In this document: positions 53,130 through 60,417 of the stretch, piece by piece | Numbering within the stretch: position 1 is the first letter of the stretch | Layout: every line of letters begins with the position of its first letter | Assembly: GCA_041946735.1 (NCBI GenBank) | Contig: JBHGAY010000028.1 | Span: 1-64,000 of the forward strand | Source of the DNA: Candidatus Eiseniibacteriota bacterium | GTDB taxonomy: Bacteria > Eisenbacteria > RBG-16-71-46 > CAIMUX01 > VGJL01 | Direction: 5' to 3' | DNA length: 64,000 nt | Notes under the pieces: model-generated | The model's database searches: none | Told to the model about the DNA's origin: nothing | What the model saw: the letters and a program-made list of their open reading frames with translations, nothing else | Translations under genes and position numbers: made by a program

Positions 53130-55883
53130 ATGATGAAGCGCGTCTGGTTGGTCTTGGCGATCGCCGGTCTGGTGCTGGCCTTCGCATGCGAGAAGAACGA
53201 CGATGTCACCAACCCCGACGACACGGAAGACGGCGGCGGGATCGCCCCGGACGAGATCGATTTCGCCCGGACCTTCCCTCCCTTGCTCGCGAACGGCGCC
53301 GACGCGGTGCAAGTCGTGGCGACCGTCGTCGACTCGCGCGGCCGTGGCCTTTCCGGCGTGAAGGTGAACTTCTCCACGACGGAAGGGACGATCGACGGCT
53401 TCGCGCTGTCCGGCGACCGGGGCAAGGCGATCGCGACCCTGACGAGCGAAGCGTCGGCCGTCGACCTCGTGGCCACCGTGACGGCCGAGGCGAGCACGAG
53501 CCCGGTCGGGCAGGTGCAGGCAGAACGGGTCGACGGGGCGGCGGAGGGCGCGGGCGAAAGCGCGGGCGAGAAGCCGATCGTCCTGCTCTCCAACCAGCCG
53601 CTGAGCGGCGACGCGGTCGCCGCGGCGCTGCGGGCGCGCGCGGCGAAGCTCTCGAGCGGGCCGGAGGCGGTCGCAAGCGGCACGGCGTTGACGGCGGCCG
53701 CCGGCACGATCTCCGACGAGGTCCAGGTGCCGATGCTCGGCCTCACCCTCGCCCTGCGCGCCGACCCGGCCGCGCTCCCCGGCGACGGCATCCGGTCCAG
53801 CCGGATCGAGGCGAAGCTCCTCGAGACGACGCGGCGCGTGCCGGTCTCGGGTCAGGAGATCCGCTTCGGAACGACCGCCGGCACCATCACCGGCGCCATC
53901 GCGACCGACGAGTCGGGGATTGCCGAAGCCACGTTGACGAGCGAGCCGGGCGCTGCGTCGGCCGCGGTGACCGCCTACTACGGCGGCGATATGACCGCGA
54001 CCGTCACCGTCCCGTTCGAGGCGCTCGCCTTGACGTTGGAAGCGTCGAGCCCCGAGATCCCGGCCGACGGCGTGTCTGAGGTGCAGGTGGCGGCTCGCCT
54101 GCGCACGGCGAGCGGCGCCGCGGTCACGAACGCCCGGATCGAATTCACGACGACGCTCGGCACGATCGGCTCTCCGGTTGCGACCGACGAGGGCGGGGTC
54201 GCCCTCACCTCCCTGCGAGCCGGCAGCGCGACCGGCACCGCGGCCGTTCGCGCCAGCTTCGGCGAGGACCTCACGCAGTCGGTCGCCGTGACGTTCACCC
54301 AGCCGCCGGAGACGGCATCGCTTCTCTTCCACGCCGACCCTGTGGCGCTCGCCGCCGACGGCATCAGCGAGAGCCGGCTGATCGCCGACGCGCTCGACGC
54401 GGATGGCAACCCGATGCGCGACGGAACAGTCGTGGTTTTCTCGATCGTCTCGGGCGGCGGCCAGATCGTCTCCCCCGTCGCCGCGACCAGCGGCGGCCGC
54501 GCCGAGGCCACCTACGTCGCGGGAACGACCGCCGGCGACGTGCGCCTGCGGGCGACGTCGGGCGCCGCGCAAGCGGAAGAAGTCGTCCAGCTCGCGGCAT
54601 CCGGACCGGGCGGGCTCATCCTCGAGACCGAGCCCGGCCCGAGCATCCTTGCCGACGGCCTCGAGTGGACGGAGATCCGCGCGACCGTCACCGACCGCTT
54701 CGGCAACCCCGTCCCGGCCGGGACCGCGGTCGACTTCTCGACGAGCCGCGGCGTCCTCTTCGACGCCCAGCCGACCGACGCTTCCGGCGTCGCCACCGTC
54801 CGCCTGCGCTCCGAGCGCTTCGTGACGGGAACGGCCCGCGTGATCGCCAAGGTCGGCTCGCTGCAGCAGGTCCTCGACGTCCGGTTCGTGTCGGAAGCCG
54901 GGGCCCACGTCGAGGCGCTGAGCGCCCAGCCGCCGGCCATCGGGGTCCGCGGCGCCGGCGATCACGAGACGTCGACCGTGATCTTCCAGGTGCAGGACCG
55001 TCACGGCATCCCGGTCGACGAGGACCACGCAGTCGTGCTCGACTTCCATCTCGAGCAGCCTCAGAACACCGACGCGACGCTCTATCCGGAGTCGGCGGCG
55101 ACCGACGCGCGCGGCCTTGCCTGGACGACCGTGAACGCCGGCTTCCGCTCCGGAACGGTCGGGATCGCGGCGACGTCCGGTTCGCTCTACGGCGAGCCGA
55201 TCTTCGTCGCCATCCACGGCGGGAAGCCCGACGAGCGGCACTTCTCCATCTCCTTCGAGCGGCTGAACATTGCCGGGTTGGTCTACGACGGCATCCGCAA
55301 CGCGATCACCGCTCGAGTCGGCGACCGCTGGGGCAACCCGGTCCCCGACTCGACCCGCGTCTGGTTCCGCGCCGAGTACGGTCTCATCCAGGGGAGCGAG
55401 GGAAGCACCGAGTTCGGCGAGGCTACGGTGCAGGAGATCACAGCCGGGCCGCATCCGCAGATCCCGGGCGGAGACGGCCTGGTGCTCCTCACGGCGCAAA
55501 CGGTCGACAGCACGGCCCAATGGATCGAGACCGCCGGCCACGTCATGTGGTCGGGACCGACGATCGTCGAGATCCTGGAGCCTTCCAACGGGTTCGACAT
55601 TCCCAACGGCGGGTCGATCAACATCACCTATCGCGTGCGCGACGCGAACTTCAACCCGCTGGTCGGCGGAACGTCGATCACCATGTCCGCCACGGCGGGA
55701 GAGCTGGGCGGCGACGTCGGTTTCACCCTCCCGGACACGCAGAGCCGCAGCTACACGATGTTCGGCGGCACCCTGAGCGACGACGATCCGGAGACGAACG
55801 AGCCCGAGAGCGTCACGATCACCGTCACCGTCACGAGCCAGAACGGGAACCGAGCCGCGAGGGTGACAGGCATCAAGCATTGA
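53130..55883 (+). CDS. Invasin/intimin-like lipoprotein with tandem bacterial Ig-like (Big_1) domains, 917 aa
   Basis: Lipobox 'LAFA-C'. About 6-7 repeats of '.ADG......ATV.D..GNP...V.F.T..G......TD..G.A...L'. Confidence 0.85.
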   Translation: MMKRVWLVLAIAGLVLAFACEKNDDVTNPDDTEDGGGIAPDEIDFARTFPPLLANGADAVQVVATVVDSRGRGLSGVKVNFSTTEGTIDGFALSGDRGKAIATLTSEASAVDLVATVTAEASTSPVGQVQAERVDGAAEGAGESAGEKPIVLLSNQPLSGDAVAAALRARAAKLSSGPEAVASGTALTAAAGTISDEVQVPMLGLTLALRADPAALPGDGIRSSRIEAKLLETTRRVPVSGQEIRFGTTAGTITGAIATDESGIAEATLTSEPGAASAAVTAYYGGDMTATVTVPFEALALTLEASSPEIPADGVSEVQVAARLRTASGAAVTNARIEFTTTLGTIGSPVATDEGGVALTSLRAGSATGTAAVRASFGEDLTQSVAVTFTQPPETASLLFHADPVALAADGISESRLIADALDADGNPMRDGTVVVFSIVSGGGQIVSPVAATSGGRAEATYVAGTTAGDVRLRATSGAAQAEEVVQLAASGPGGLILETEPGPSILADGLEWTEIRATVTDRFGNPVPAGTAVDFSTSRGVLFDAQPTDASGVATVRLRSERFVTGTARVIAKVGSLQQVLDVRFVSEAGAHVEALSAQPPAIGVRGAGDHETSTVIFQVQDRHGIPVDEDHAVVLDFHLEQPQNTDATLYPESAATDARGLAWTTVNAGFRSGTVGIAATSGSLYGEPIFVAIHGGKPDERHFSISFERLNIAGLVYDGIRNAITARVGDRWGNPVPDSTRVWFRAEYGLIQGSEGSTEFGEATVQEITAGPHPQIPGGDGLVLLTAQTVDSTAQWIETAGHVMWSGPTIVEILEPSNGFDIPNGGSINITYRVRDANFNPLVGGTSITMSATAGELGGDVGFTLPDTQSRSYTMFGGTLSDDDPETNEPESVTITVTVTSQNGNRAARVTGIKH

Positions 55884-56070
55884 TCTGAACGGGCCTCCAG
55901 CACGCCCCGCGCGGCACCATCCGTGCGGGGCGACGCGCAGTGCCGGAATGCCGGAACGCGAGCGCATAGCCCGGCCCAGCGGGCGGCGCAGTTTCATGCG
56001 CGGTCAGCGGATCGCTTCTCGGCTGACCTTGGCGGATTGCAGTTCCGGTCCGCGCGGCCTGGGACCTCGT

Positions 56071-57264
56071 CTACACGAACCTCTCCCGCAGCCGCCGCGC
56101 AGCGGCCGTCATGCTCCTGAGCTTCGCCGCCGCCGTCTCAGCGTCGTTGACGCAGCGCTGGGCGAAGCAGCCGAAGCCGCAGTCGGGATTCAGGAAGACC
56201 CGCTCGGGCGGGAAAAAGGCGAGCGCCTCCGCGACTCTCGCGACGATCTCCTCGACCGTCTCGACCGCGTCGGTCCGCGGGTTGACGACGCCGAGGCCGA
56301 TCTCCCGCCCCGCGAGCGCCCGGCCGACCACCTCGAACTCGCCCGCGCGCGGCGTGGCGTACTCGAGAACGAACTGGTCGACCCGCATCCGCTGGAAGGC
56401 GGGAAGGAGCGGGGTGTAGTCGCCGCTCAACAGCACCGACTCGTCCCGGCTCCAGTTACCGCGACAGACGTGGAGGCCGATCCGCGGGCGCGACCCGGGG
56501 CCGGCGCCGAGCGGGCCGCGGTCCATGGGAGTCACGACGCCGTCGATCACCCGGTTCAGCAAGTCGGCCGCGTATTCCAGCTCCGTGCCCGCGTCCCGGC
56601 GGGTTGCGAGCGTCGCTCACATGAAGGTGCGGCGTTCACAGTCCTCCGACAGGACGATCTCCGTCAGCACCGGCTCGTCGAACTGGACGAACTCGCAGCC
56701 GGCCGCGGCGAGATCGAACAGCTCCTCGCGCAGGATCCGGACGACGTCGTCCCCCATCTCGGTCTTGTCGCGATAGGCGGCGCCCGAAAACGCGCCGACC
56801 CACATTGCGCGCGTCAGCAGATACGGGCCGGGAAGGGTGATCTTGACCGGCTTGTCGGTCAACGTCCGGAGGAATGCGAGGTCCCCGGCGGCGAGCGGCT
56901 CGCGCCGCGCGAGGCGCCCCACACAGGTCGGGTTGCGGATCGAGGAGGCGGGGACGTCGAGGGTGTCGAGCATCTCCTCGAACGCCGCCTTGTCCTCGAC
57001 GGTGTCGAGCATCTCGGCGAGCGACATCAGACGCGTCCCTTCGAGCTTCTCCGTGACGAAGGAGTAGAAGTTGTCGCGGCGGATTTCGCCGTCGACGACC
57101 ACGTCCACCCCCGCATCGTGCTGCGCAGCGACGCAGGCGGCGATCTCGCGACCAGCGATCTCGTCGAACTGCTCCCGCGACATCCGTCCGCGCTGCTTCT
57201 CTCGCAGCGCCGCGAGAAGCTCGCGCGAGCGCGGCCAGCTTCCGACCTGGGTCACGTCGAACAT
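56071..57264 (-). CDS. Cobalamin-independent methionine synthase II (MetE C-terminal-like) family protein with in-frame TGA (probable Sec216), 397 aa
   Basis: RBS GGAGG before ATG 57264. 'GSWPR', 'DGEIRR', 'KITLPGP', 'QFDEP', and Zn ligands 'LHVCRGN', 'LEYA', 'NPDCGFG'. ORFs 56617..57348 and 56071..56562 are in the same frame, joined through TGA 56617-56619 (RTFM-U-ATLA). Confidence 0.88.
56581..56616 (-). promoter_or_regulatory. Candidate bacterial SECIS element for the MetE-like gene
   Basis: TGA-GCGACGCTCGCAA-CCCGC-CGGGAC-GCGGG-CACGGAG. The apical loop follows 18 nt after the UGA and has G at loop position 2. Confidence 0.65.
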
Positions 57265-57276
57265 GCGATCCTCCGT

Positions 57277-57348
57277 CGCTGCGGCCGTCCGCACCGCGTC
57301 GGTCGCCCGCACTGCGGCGGTCGCCGGCACTGCCGCGGCCGTCCGCAC
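57277..57348. repeat. Four imperfect 18-bp tandem repeats upstream of the MetE-like RBS
   Basis: Minus strand: GTGCGGACGGCCGCGGCA / GTGCCGGCGACCGCCGCA / GTGCGGGCGACCGACGCG / GTGCGGACGGCCGCAGCG. Confidence 0.7.
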
Positions 57349-57379
57349 ACGCGCCAGGCACCGGCGCCTCTTCTCTTCC

Positions 57380-58147
57380 TCACAGAATCACCAGCTTGCA
57401 CGAAAGCGCGGTCGCCCGCGCGAGCGTGACGGCGACCGGAGAGCGGGCGACCGTCCGCTCCCATGCCTCGCGCACCGCCGCCGGCTCGGCGCCGGTCGAA
57501 GCGAAGCACTTCACATCGACCTGCGCGAGCCCCGGGTCCCCTTCGCCCAGGCCGAGCGGGGCAAGCGGGTTGCCCAGACGCCCACGGACCGTCAGCTCCA
57601 CGTCGTCGACGTCGAGGCCGGAGCGCCCGCACTCGGTAGCGAAGCCGCTCGCGAGCGCGGCGCCAAGGGATCCGAGCAGAAGCTCGACGGCCGAAGGGTG
57701 GGCGTCCTTCTCCTCGAAGCTCGCCGGCTGGCCCCCGTGGAACGAGAAGTTCCGGCAGTAGACGGTCGAGCGCTGCGGCCCCGACGCCCGCACGCGCAGC
57801 CGCCACTCGTACGACTCCGCCTTCCGCTTGTCGGCCGCGAGCGCTTCGGCTTCCTTCTCCGCGACCGCACCGCTCCCCTTGCGGACGAAGTAGCGCACCC
57901 CGCTCGCGTTTCCGCCGCCCGGCAGCGCTCCGAGGAACTGGTGCCCGACCATCCGGCACCACGGCGGCAGGTCGTCCCGGACCGTCGGCTCGCGCGAGCG
58001 CATCTCGAGGATCCCTCCTTCGGGGACCGCGAGCATCTGCTCGCGGATCAGAAGGACGAGCCCCGACCCGCAGTCCAGATCCCCGCCGTCGAAAACCCGG
58101 TCGGGACGGAGCCGCTCGAGAGATTCGGGAGATTCCTCGCCCGCCAT
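57380..58147 (-). CDS. TusA/SirA-like sulfur-carrier domain fused to an OsmC-like domain, 255 aa
   Basis: 'FDGGDLDCGSG...DDLPPWCRMVGH' (TusA-like) and 'HPSAVELLLGSLG...RSPVAVTL' (OsmC-like, Cys-less). RBS GGAGGG. Confidence 0.85.
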   Translation of the reverse strand: MAGEESPESLERLRPDRVFDGGDLDCGSGLVLLIREQMLAVPEGGILEMRSREPTVRDDLPPWCRMVGHQFLGALPGGGNASGVRYFVRKGSGAVAEKEAEALAADKRKAESYEWRLRVRASGPQRSTVYCRNFSFHGGQPASFEEKDAHPSAVELLLGSLGAALASGFATECGRSGLDVDDVELTVRGRLGNPLAPLGLGEGDPGLAQVDVKCFASTGAEPAAVREAWERTVARSPVAVTLARATALSCKLVIL

Positions 58148-58163
58148 GGCACCCTCCGTCGCG

Positions 58164-58529
58164 TCAGTAGGAGATGCAGGGAGTCCCGCCGGAGAGGAAC
58201 TCGACGAGCGCCGCTCCCCCGGCCGGCGTCGCTCCGGCGATCAGCCGCTCCGGCTCAATCGAGCGCTTCTTCATGCAAGGGGTGCAGACGAGGATCGTCC
58301 CGCCTCCGGCGACGAACTTGTCGACCAGCTCCTTCAGCGGCGCGAACGGCGCGCCTTCGTTCACCTTCTCGTATTCCCCCTGGACGGCGGCCCAGACGCC
58401 GTCGGTCGAGAGGAAGACCATCGTCTCCTTCTCGCTGCCAAGGGCGGCGTTCGCGACGACAAAGCCGACGGTCGCGGAGTCGCCGTTCTCCTTGCAGCGG
58501 GTGATCGAAACGCAGAACTTCTCGCTCAT
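58164..58529 (-). CDS. DsrE/DsrF-like sulfur relay protein, 121 aa
   Basis: RBS AGGAGA and ATGA overlap. 'VVANAA', 'VFLSTDGV', 'ILVCTPCMKKR'. Confidence 0.88.
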   Translation of the reverse strand: MSEKFCVSITRCKENGDSATVGFVVANAALGSEKETMVFLSTDGVWAAVQGEYEKVNEGAPFAPLKELVDKFVAGGGTILVCTPCMKKRSIEPERLIAGATPAGGAALVEFLSGGTPCISY

Positions 58530-58831
58530 GGTCGGTTCTCCTCCTTTGATGGTGGCCGGCCGGGGGTCGCTCCCCCGTGGCCGGGACGGACACGGACCAG
58601 ATAGAACGGGTGACGCGCATCGAGCAGCTCGTGCCCCGTGACGCGGCACCAGGCGCGCATCTCGACCGGCGCCCCCGGATCGCGCGCGAGGATCGCGACG
58701 CGCGCGCCGGGCGGCAGCGGCCGGAAGTGGATCCGGAGATCGATCAGGATCTCGCCGCAGCCGGTGTCCCGGCCATCGAAGCGGGAGTCCGGGCGCCAGT
58801 CGGACGGCATCTCTTCCCATCCCGCCATCAT
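58526..58831 (-). CDS. TusA family sulfurtransferase/sulfur carrier, ~101 aa
   Basis: 'FDGRDTGCGE...DPGAPVEMRAWCRVTGHEL'. ATGA overlaps at both ends. Confidence 0.85.
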   Translation of the reverse strand: MMAGWEEMPSDWRPDSRFDGRDTGCGEILIDLRIHFRPLPPGARVAILARDPGAPVEMRAWCRVTGHELLDARHPFYLVRVRPGHGGATPGRPPSKEENRP

Positions 58832-59937
58832 TCCGCCGTCGACTCCCCCGGCGCGGCCGGGTTCGGGCCGAACCTCCAGGCGGCCGAGAGCTGGAGCGTC
58901 CACTCCTGCACGTTGCCGCCGTTCTGTTGCACATTCCGGTAGACGGTCAACGGCACGGTCGCCGAGAGCGAGATGTCGTCCCGCGGCGACCAGTCGAGCC
59001 CCGGACCGACGAGGACGATCGGTCCGGCGCGCCGGAACCCCTCCGTATCGCCGATCAGGTCGTCGTACGGGACCCAGGCGACGTCGGCCACGGCGCGCGC
59101 GGCGAAGCGGCTCAGCGTCCCGCCGTTCAGACCCAGCAGGCTCCGGAAGGTGACACGCAGCGTCGCGGCGTCGGAGTCGGAGTTCTTCTCGGGCGCCGCG
59201 GAGGCCGGGTTCAGCTCGTGGCGGAAGTTGTTCACGGTCGTGGCGGACGGCGTGAAGACATAGCGCGCCGTCGCGCCGAGGCCGAAGCGCTCGCCGAGCG
59301 GACGGCTGCCTCCCAGCTCGATGATCCCCGCCCAGTTGCCCGTCCCTTCCTGGGCGGCCAGGTCCTTCGTGACGAGCGTGCCGTTCTTCGCGCGGAACTT
59401 CCCATCCGATCTGCCGGTGGGAAGGCGCGCGCCGAGCGAGACGTAGGCGGCGAGCCCCGGCCCGCCGGAGCCGCCGGAGCCGCCGGCCGCGAACCAGTAG
59501 CGAGCGAGCAGGCGGATGTCGCCCAGGCCGTTCGCCTGCATGTTGCCGGCGACACCACCGAACTCGCGGCTCTGCTCGTTGTGGACGAACGGGACCTCCG
59601 CGGCCACGGTGAATCGCTCGGAGAGGTCGTACTCGGCGGAGATCAAATGCTCGATCCCGAGGGTGGCGGGAGCGACGTTCGTCTCGGTCGCATCATCGCG
59701 CTCCTCACCGATGTAGTAGTGGTCGGTGTCCGAGTAGGTGAACCCGTACCCGAGTCGGAGCGAGCCGGGCAGATTGGCGTGCTGGATCTCCCCGACGGGG
59801 AGCGAGACCGGCACTCACCCACAGCCGCCGGCGAGCGCGCGGATCGGAACGGCGACGAGAGCGAGCGAAAGCGAGAGCGCGGCGAGTCTCGCGAGACTCA
59901 TGAGTCCCGAGAGTCTCGAGATCTTCTTGTTGCACAT
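58828..59937 (-). CDS. Outer-membrane beta-barrel (MetA-pathway/'transporter'-like) with N-terminal C-x-U motif (probable Sec41), 369 aa
   Basis: RBS GGAGG before ATG 59937. Signal peptide MCNKKISRLSGLMSLARLAALSLSLALVAVPIRALA, then GG-C-G-TGA(59815-59817)-VPVSLP in frame with the 58828..59814 ORF. Barrel motifs 'AAEVPFV', 'GLGDIRL', 'GARLPTG', 'QEGTG'. Confidence 0.82.
59785..59814 (-). promoter_or_regulatory. Candidate bacterial SECIS element for the barrel gene
   Basis: TGA-GTGCCGGTCTCG-CTCCCC-GTC-GGGGAG-ATC. Perfect 6-bp stem with a GU-starting loop that follows 18 nt after the UGA. Confidence 0.7.
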
Positions 59938-60417
59938 GAGAGCGGACTACCTCCCTGCGGCCGTTCGAACTGCCCAGAAACACCATGCCTCGCAAGACCC
60001 GAGGAAGCTCACGACAGCAGATCTGGGCGATTTGTCGAACCGAGGGAGTCCCGAAGGATGTCAGGCGCTCGGAGGGTTCAGCGACGCGCAGTCACGCTGC
60101 CGCGACGAGCAGCGCACTCAGGTGAACGGGGGCCGTTCCCAGGTCTCTTGGAGGACCTTGCGCATCGTTTCCTTCCGTTGAACGCGGAGCCGGCCGCAAT
60201 CGATTCGTCGGCGGCAGCTCCCATGGCCGTCTTCCGGGCAGGACGGTCGGCACCGTCGCCTCGCCCGGCTCAAGAGCATGACGGTCGAACATACGCGGTG
60301 GCGTGGGCGGCCGGCAACGGAAAACTGAGGCGGACCGACGGTCCACCCTCGGCGGCCGACCGGCGCCTGGAACTGTGCGGCGTCGGGAGAGCGTCGAGCT
60401 CCCCCGACTTCCTGCGG

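Follow-up and report, generated by a model that had tools for sequence, protein, structure and literature searches.

A TusA, DsrE, TusA-OsmC and MetE-like gene module with a predicted selenocysteine-containing zinc enzyme, joined in Eisenbacteria-type genomes to a putative outer-membrane selenoprotein

We analyzed a 64,000-nucleotide (nt) stretch of DNA, here called the window, from Candidatus Eiseniibacteriota bacterium (GenBank assembly GCA_041946735.1, contig JBHGAY010000028.1, positions 1 to 64,000). A five-gene operon between positions 59937 and 56071, with all genes on the minus strand, encodes an outer-membrane beta-barrel protein, a TusA-like carrier, a DsrE-like protein, a TusA-OsmC fusion and a MetE-like zinc enzyme, in that order. 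The barrel and MetE-like genes each contain a single in-frame TGA, and both codons are almost certainly decoded as selenocysteine (Sec) through a predicted hairpin 18 nt downstream, by the SelA, SelB, SelD and tRNA-Sec that the genome encodes. We assign this status because the Sec machinery is present, homologs have either Cys or TGA at the two sites, and the candidate selenocysteine insertion sequence (SECIS) hairpins are constrained. Comparison of gene neighborhoods further shows that the conserved unit, predicted to be a functional one, is a cytoplasmic four-gene module (TusA - DsrE - TusA/OsmC - MetE-like) found in about ten phyla; an outer-membrane channel with a putative Cys-Gly-Sec hook at its mature N-terminus appears to be an addition in an Eisenbacteria-type lineage.

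Two in-frame TGA codons are predicted to encode selenocysteine

All genes for Sec incorporation are present in the genome (4.89 Mb, 68% G+C, 94.8% complete): selA, selB, selD and the gene for tRNA-Sec (selC). In the barrel gene the Sec codon is at 59817-59815 (minus strand; residue 41, in the context ...ALAGGCG-U-VPVSLPVGE) and is followed by a SECIS-like hairpin, CUCCCC-GUC-GGGGAG (59788..59802, minus). In the MetE-like gene it is at 56619-56617 (minus; RRTFM-U-ATLATRRD, residue 216 counted from Met1 and 217 in P0002), followed by the SECIS hairpin (A)CCCGC-CGGGAC-GCGGG(C) (56587..56604, minus), which is under synonymous-site constraint. The loop is 18 nt 3' of the UGA in both cases. Contigs from an independent metagenome (run X2) span 56350-56889 and 59641-60000, cover both TGAs and match the window without a single letter difference. 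The genome's own selD (G000:C2:108941-109867, L003) also looks like a selenoprotein gene, with a single in-frame TGA (...CAG-U-ASK) and a hairpin about 20 nt downstream.

Among 120 full-length database homologs of the MetE-like protein (56-73% identical), 119 have Cys at the site (RTFM-C-ATLA) and the remaining one has a gap. At the DNA level we compared 80 related loci on one-genome-per-species contigs (GTDB species genomes), in which the codon is a stop in 74 and TGC or TGT in six; it is TGA in all 73 of the stop-containing loci found by motif, the 74th having been seen by tblastn only. The TGA forms come from about ten phyla (Planctomycetota, Verrucomicrobiota, Eisenbacteria, Krumholzibacteriota and Latescibacterota, and further Fibrobacterota, Acidobacteriota, Desulfobulbales, Armatimonadota and Chloroflexota), and their carriers include the cultured Desulfopila aestuarii DSM 18488 and Desulfopila sp. 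IMCC35008; one complete Desulfopila chromosome is among the loci. A FastTree phylogeny of 136 rows (the window, every other database homolog and the related loci, of which three with short matches were dropped to leave 77 of 80) has one all-Cys clade of 41 rows and one mixed clade of 72 Sec and 23 Cys rows, and well-supported branches force at least five switches between Sec and Cys. One row labelled Cys, P0013, in fact has a gap at the site.

The consensus of the TGA forms, UGA GCN ACN YUN GCN ACC CGC CGK GAY GCG GGU, forms a stem, ACCCGC/GCGGGU, around the loop CGKGAY, which begins 18 nt past the UGA. Stem-codon use is nearly uniform in the 73 Sec forms (ACC in 70/72, CGC in 73/73, GCG in 73/73, GGT in 66/73), while three or four different codons are used for each of the equally invariant residues flanking the stem; the stem is missing from all six Cys forms. 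Because the stem codons are frozen and those of invariant neighbors vary, selection acts on the RNA rather than on the protein. In one Cys form, L095, the place of the SECIS downstream of the TGC codon is taken by another hairpin (CCCGG-CGCGAT-CCGGG), which may be left over from a recent switch from Sec to Cys.

The barrel site shows the same alternation. Eighteen of 40 homologs are full length with G-C-G-C at the site, another 18 start no more than two residues past the second Cys (i.e., they are truncated calls) and four start later. The window's own record is one of the truncated calls: it is stored as a 328-aa form beginning just past the TGA (P0123), much as the preliminary description of this DNA had anticipated in stating that annotation would break the genes. 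The codon is TGA in the window and in genomes G015, G019, G013 and G008, and TGC or TGT in five loci (G010, G007, two copies in G009, and L031). A hairpin CUCCCC-GUY-GGGGAG occurs in all five Sec forms (one with a U-G wobble); in the five Cys forms it is broken in three and weakened in a fourth. A metagenome scan with the barrel protein yielded two loci only, too few for covariation analysis.

These data bear directly on two other explanations of the TGAs. Each is a single substitution away from a Cys codon (TGC to TGA) and gene callers do give truncated products such as P0123, as would be expected of sequencing errors or nonsense mutations in two broken genes. That explanation is exceedingly improbable, since the same TGA recurs in 74 of the 80 MetE-like loci and in five barrel genomes, both frames stay open and conserved past it, the independent metagenome letters are identical at both sites, the RNA is constrained 3' of the codon, and a barrel begun after the TGA would be without its signal peptide. 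Recoded lineages do contain in-frame TGAs, and a changed genetic code or near-cognate read-through might insert Trp, Cys or Gly here. We consider this very improbable: the homologs have Cys rather than Trp or Gly at both sites, the Sec machinery is complete, and a position-specific hairpin is under selection. Moreover, the barrel, TusA, DsrE and TusA-OsmC genes all end in TGA, and only the MetE-like gene, with TAG, does not. TGA therefore serves here as an ordinary stop codon, as the preliminary description held in rejecting a variant genetic code. Its reading of both genes as probable selenoproteins is likewise borne out by the machinery, by the Cys or TGA found in homologs at both sites and by the constrained hairpins.

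A single-barrel MetE-like enzyme with a selenocysteine loop

The MetE-like gene (57264..56071, minus strand) encodes a 397-aa protein that matches Meth_synt_2 (PF01717) at 123.8 bits (cut-off 21). It consists of a single (beta/alpha)8 barrel and is without the N-terminal folate-binding barrel. The AlphaFold model (predicted local distance difference test score, pLDDT, 87.9) matches Thermotoga maritima MetE with template modelling (TM) scores of 0.71-0.73 and the single-barrel structures 3rpd and 1ypx with TM scores of 0.82-0.83 on the target. Seven residues (S10, E61, D197, H266, C268, E302 and C363, P0002 numbering) are invariant in 44 sequences. The zinc ligands among them (H-x-C, E, C) are H266, C268, E302 and C363; their assignment rests on the motifs HxC, E and NPDC, on the order in which these occur, and on alignment with T. 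maritima MetE. S10, E61 and D197 align with its GSFP, HGE and DEP motifs as the homocysteine-binding residues. Through the T. maritima alignment, all seven correspond to E. coli residues named by Price et al. 2021 (PMC7857596).

Counted from Met1, the invariant Cys/Sec positions are C114, U/C216, C267, C362 and C366. Three invariant chalcogen residues are specific to the family: the Cys of NPTC, the Sec or Cys of RTFM-U and the second Cys of NPDCGFGC. The Sec lies in a loop (residues 207-225) after strand 193-197 and a short helix, and pLDDT there is only about 52 despite invariant surrounding residues. Going by the model, this segment is probably a mobile loop, placed after strand 5 and on the barrel's catalytic face.

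The (beta/alpha)8 fold and the zinc and homocysteine residues are shared with the C-terminal barrel of MetE and with the MesA-MesD enzymes (1t7l, 1xdj, 3rpd and 1ypx; PMC7857596), and the absence of a folate-binding barrel is a further likeness to MesA-D. Unlike all of these, the enzyme carries its Sec (or Cys) on a flexible insertion, a loop of about 20-25 residues that follows strand 5, together with two further invariant Cys. Unlike MesA-D, its partners are TusA, DsrE and OsmC proteins rather than a corrinoid protein or DUF1852, and it coexists with canonical MetE and MetH-type genes. It does not score as a canonical MetE (TIGR01371, 99.6 bits against a cut-off of 929.95), and all nine NCBIfam methionine-synthase models fall below their cut-offs. 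Nor does its setting resemble that of MesD and MesX: at the window and related loci the neighbors are TusA, DsrE and TusA-OsmC genes and not DUF1852, for which no genome-wide search was made. Canonical methionine synthases are encoded elsewhere in the genome, namely MetE on C24 (482 bits) and MetH-type genes on C27 and C11, so the operon's enzyme is most readily seen as accessory.

Carrier proteins and conservation of the four-gene module

TusA- and DsrE-type sulfur-relay proteins are persulfide carriers of tRNA thiolation and sulfur oxidation, and the usual TusA motif is CPxP. The operon encodes three proteins with TusA- or DsrE-like domains. The TusA-like carrier (58831..58526, minus strand; 101 aa) has two invariant Cys, C25 in a C-G-E motif and C62 in a W-C-R motif (numbering from Met1 of each protein, across module orthologs). 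The DsrE-like protein (58530..58164, minus; 121 aa; PF02635, 42.3 bits against a cut-off of 22.7) has C7, conserved in 64 of 65 orthologs, and the C-T-P-C motif C83-x-x-C86, conserved in all 65. In the TusA-OsmC fusion (58147..57380, minus; 255 aa) C26 and C64 of the TusA part are invariant and the Cys of the OsmC domain (42.1 bits, cut-off 27.5) are not. Small size, cytoplasmic location, fold type and invariant reactive Cys are those of relay TusA and DsrE proteins. The TusA domains differ in having C-G-E or C-G-S plus a second invariant Cys in W-C-R in place of CPxP, and the Dsr, Hdr and Tus partner genes of the relay systems are absent here. DsrE-like selenoproteins are listed as UxxC in Table 1 of PMC13188914; the DsrE protein here is CxxC at that position. 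The small TusA also weakly matches the N-terminus of the NCBIfam Rv1681-family radical SAM model (E 0.009, profile positions 1-56), which hints that the Rv1679-1681 cluster may use the same kind of TusA domain.

The TusA-OsmC gene adjoins the MetE-like gene in 67 of the 80 loci and DsrE does so in 65, several of the remaining loci being contig ends; in many Planctomycetota the small TusA sits after, not before, the other module genes. Searches of the module flanks at seven diverse loci found no conserved extra genes. The flanking genes differ among phyla, and we therefore regard the four genes as a self-contained module. The preliminary description had treated all five genes as one unit: the four-gene core is indeed conserved, but the barrel is attached to it in five Eisenbacteria-type genomes only and also occurs alone elsewhere. 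At a deltaproteobacterial locus (L078:32-5462) the module directly follows a corrinoid methyltransferase cluster containing two URO-D/MtaA-like genes, a B12-binding protein and an ABC transporter with an NMT1-type binding protein.

A second association concerns a trio of genes encoding an OsmC protein, an acyl-CoA-dehydrogenase-like (ACAD) protein of the Rv1679 type (NF049984, E ~1e-114, below cut-off) and a binding-protein-like protein of the Rv1680 type (NF049985, E ~1e-63, below cut-off). This trio directly precedes the MetE-like gene in all six Cys-form loci (Verrucomicrobiota-type), and in five Sec-form loci it precedes the complete TusA-DsrE-TusA/OsmC-MetE(Sec) array (trio loci: L061:4443-6992, L088, L095, L054, L090, L046, L048, L072 and L092). 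In the window's genome the ACAD and binding-protein-like pair is on another contig (G000:C16:55911-57860; L112:7846-9942), followed by a 408-aa protein without a family match. A literature search on Rv1679, Rv1680 and Rv1681 found no paper that names any two of the three.

An outer-membrane barrel with a predicted N-terminal selenocysteine

The barrel gene (59937..58828, minus strand) encodes a 369-aa protein whose signal peptide ends in A-L-A, giving a mature N-terminus GGCGU. It has no Pfam or NCBIfam match. Its AlphaFold model is a beta-barrel (pLDDT 77.6), and the best match among solved structures is the COG4313 outer-membrane channel 4rl8 of Pseudomonas putida (E 3e-11, TM 0.78 on the target). 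Both fold and signal peptide fit the COG4313 / Phenol_MetA_deg channel type, although the query itself has no profile match and PF13557 is recorded in only three of the 40 homologs. Beyond that type, the protein has G-C-G-[C/U] conserved where its mature chain begins.

The barrel gene is joined to the module only in the window, G008, G010, G019 and L031. The flanks of five lone barrel genes contain no conserved extra genes. In G015, where a Sec-form barrel gene stands alone, a gene of the AIR-synthase family that may be selD-like is found some 5 kb upstream of it (L022:2122-3039, G015:C6).

Three distant relatives with about 26-32% identity, L028 (G124:C157), L029 (G008:C55) and L017 (G054:C72), have a TGA directly after the signal peptide, in the contexts FAQG-U, SGQG-U and AAVA-U. 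Two of them have hairpins recognized by eye, with loops CGUGAUU and CGUGUCU. An N-terminal Sec may thus mark a wider clade of outer-membrane channels.

Proposed role and alternative explanations

Taken as a whole, the account that we narrowly favor comprises two real selenoproteins, a four-gene module, chemistry at the Sec loop, an accessory role and an added channel. Its parts differ in strength. That the MetE-like enzyme is functionally coupled with the carriers is probable; the chalcogen or alkyl exchange at the Sec loop is put forward tentatively. In this scheme the lid loop with its Sec would be a swinging nucleophile. It would react with a substrate of the homocysteine or methionine type whose thiol or selenol is activated by zinc, and would exchange a chalcogen (as selenenyl-sulfide or persulfide) or an alkyl or methyl group with the cysteines of TusA, DsrE and TusA-OsmC. 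Most likely the module would salvage or detoxify an organic compound of sulfur or selenium, and the presence of canonical methionine synthases elsewhere in the genome points to an accessory role. The barrel, which resembles channels for hydrophobic molecules, would admit the external form of that compound, perhaps first capturing it on its Sec. The pathway outlined in the preliminary description (capture at the outer membrane, relay, and methylation or alkylation) remains conjectural.

Several observations count against this account. Folded from the GC-rich sequence of the window alone, the hairpins do not exceed random expectation (z of -0.7 to -1.3 relative to shuffled sequences); their significance arises only through comparison of genomes, which upheld the hairpins that the preliminary description had proposed. 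The stem in the MetE-like gene is invariant rather than covarying, so the support for it is synonymous constraint and not compensatory change. Among the carriers, the small TusA scores just under the Pfam cut-off (PF01206, 27.9 bits against 28.6; the TusA part of the fusion, 20.1 bits) and has C-G-E or C-G-S in place of CPxP. OsmC/Ohr peroxidases have two conserved catalytic Cys; of 67 orthologs of the fusion, only 38 have one of the OsmC-domain Cys and 55 the other. The carriers are cytoplasmic, without signal peptides, and the operon has no gene for an inner-membrane transporter. Some Sec-form MetE-like genes occur without carriers (L068, L074, L093). Finally, outside the five genomes with the linkage the barrel gene stands alone among unrelated neighbors, and for this reason we assign the barrel a part in the pathway only with reserve.

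Three other functional explanations were weighed. The MetE-like protein might be a fifth family of 'core' methionine synthases, with a non-folate methyl donor supplied by its neighbors as MesX does for MesD. It has the invariant zinc and homocysteine-binding residues and the single barrel of MesA-D, and 3rpd, a MesD protein, is among its best fold matches. We nevertheless find this unlikely, given that canonical two-barrel MetE and MetH-type genes are already in the genome, the partners are carriers of the persulfide and not the methyl type, three extra invariant Cys/Sec residues would be superfluous for methionine synthesis, and every NCBIfam methionine-synthase model scores below its cut-off. 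Cys/Sec pairs in all five proteins, and the three extra chalcogen ligands of the enzyme, could instead protect the cell from soft metals or metalloids (Hg, As, Te or a surplus of Se) through Cys/Sec chelation and MetE-fold methylation, with the CGU hook of the barrel binding the element at the surface; Table 1 of PMC13188914 does include an arsenite methyltransferase and MerT-like and MerB-like selenoproteins. A scan of the flanks of 17 loci found no mer, ars or efflux genes nearby, the flanking genes are variable and do not form resistance islands, and the retained amino-acid-binding residues favor an amino-acid substrate, which together make such a defence quite unlikely.

The remaining alternative is a more specific version of the favored account, in which the module scavenges organosulfur or organoselenium compounds together with the Rv1679-type flavoenzyme and the Rv1680-type binding-like protein, and the MetE-like enzyme cleaves or forms a C-S or C-Se bond. 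It draws on the position of the trio ahead of the MetE-like gene (6/6 Cys-form loci) or of the complete module (five Sec-form loci), on the resemblance of the ACAD protein to SfnB, DszC and 3-sulfinopropanoyl-CoA desulfinase models, and on that of the binding-protein-like protein to sulfonate and putative selenate binding-protein models. All of those scores are under the family cut-offs, however, the pair is on a separate contig (C16) in the window's genome, the linked loci come from related Verrucomicrobiota and Planctomycetota and so represent few independent cases, and no paper on Rv1679-Rv1681 was found. We regard this version as doubtful.

To return to the favored account, a bolder extension of it can be imagined, although we would not expect it to prove correct. 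The MetE-like proteins would be a widespread, unannotated selenoenzyme family in which the Sec on a swinging lid loop, acting beside a MetE-fold zinc site, serves as covalent carrier (Se-methyl or Se-S/Se-Se). It would need neither corrinoid nor folate for a task that other methyltransferases perform by means of a cofactor, and a dedicated TusA/DsrE/OsmC relay would load or unload it. In Eisenbacteria, the Cys-Gly-Sec hook of the channel would capture an insoluble chalcogen, for example elemental sulfur or selenium. If this were true, the surface hook would provide the 'outer-membrane thiol' long postulated for sulfur mobilisation.

Other features of the locus

The barrel and TusA genes, and the TusA and DsrE genes, overlap by ATGA; the DsrE and TusA-OsmC genes are 16 nt apart and the TusA-OsmC and MetE-like genes 113 nt. 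The gene order with its two terminal in-frame TGAs, the ATGA coupling and the hairpin loops at 18 nt are all as first described from the letters of the window. The 113-nt spacer is unusually long (about 10-25 nt in other genomes) and is filled by an 18-nt tandem repeat, 4.2 copies with 76% matches (57277..57353, no strand), 5' of the MetE-like gene. Translation from an in-frame GTG further upstream, at 57348, would make the repeat an Ala/Thr-rich N-terminal extension of the MetE-like protein. An Rfam scan of 55800-60500 (E up to 1) gave no matches and hence no riboswitch clue; a promoter scan gave no promoter-like sites, and terminator-like sites were at chance level. The operon is flanked by genes for large predicted secreted repeat-rich proteins, of 917 aa downstream (53130-55883, plus strand) and 762 aa upstream (60418-62706, minus).

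Novelty and implications

The system shares with known bacterial selenoproteins an in-frame UGA, Cys-containing homologs and a SECIS hairpin shortly after the UGA. Neither a MetE-type (Meth_synt_2) nor a COG4313-type family is among the 119 bacterial selenoprotein families and subfamilies in Table 1 of a 2026 review (PMC13188914); the only outer-membrane selenoproteins in the table are an MtrB/PioB-type barrel and a TonB-dependent receptor. Term searches found neither family in a 2022 review (PMC9312934) or in the Haft preprint, and found no reference to selenocysteine, TusA, DsrE or OsmC in Price et al. 2021 (PMC7857596). NCBIfam release 20 has no dedicated model for the MetE-like or the barrel family. 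The preliminary description knew of no account of such a system, and our full-text literature searches, which covered papers without their supplements, found none in print.

The two genes would add two selenoprotein families to the prokaryotic inventory. The MetE-like family, spread over about ten phyla, would be the first selenoprotein family of the MetE/UroD superfamily, and its members, tied to sulfur/selenium carriers, would be folate-independent MetE-like enzymes of a fifth kind; the barrel would be an outer-membrane channel family with Sec at its mature N-terminus. Current annotation splits or truncates both genes, and a family model would mend hundreds of records. The module is also linked to the equally unstudied Rv1679/Rv1680-type gene pair. 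Since cultured Desulfopila strains hold the Sec form, the predicted chemistry of the enzyme would be open to direct testing.

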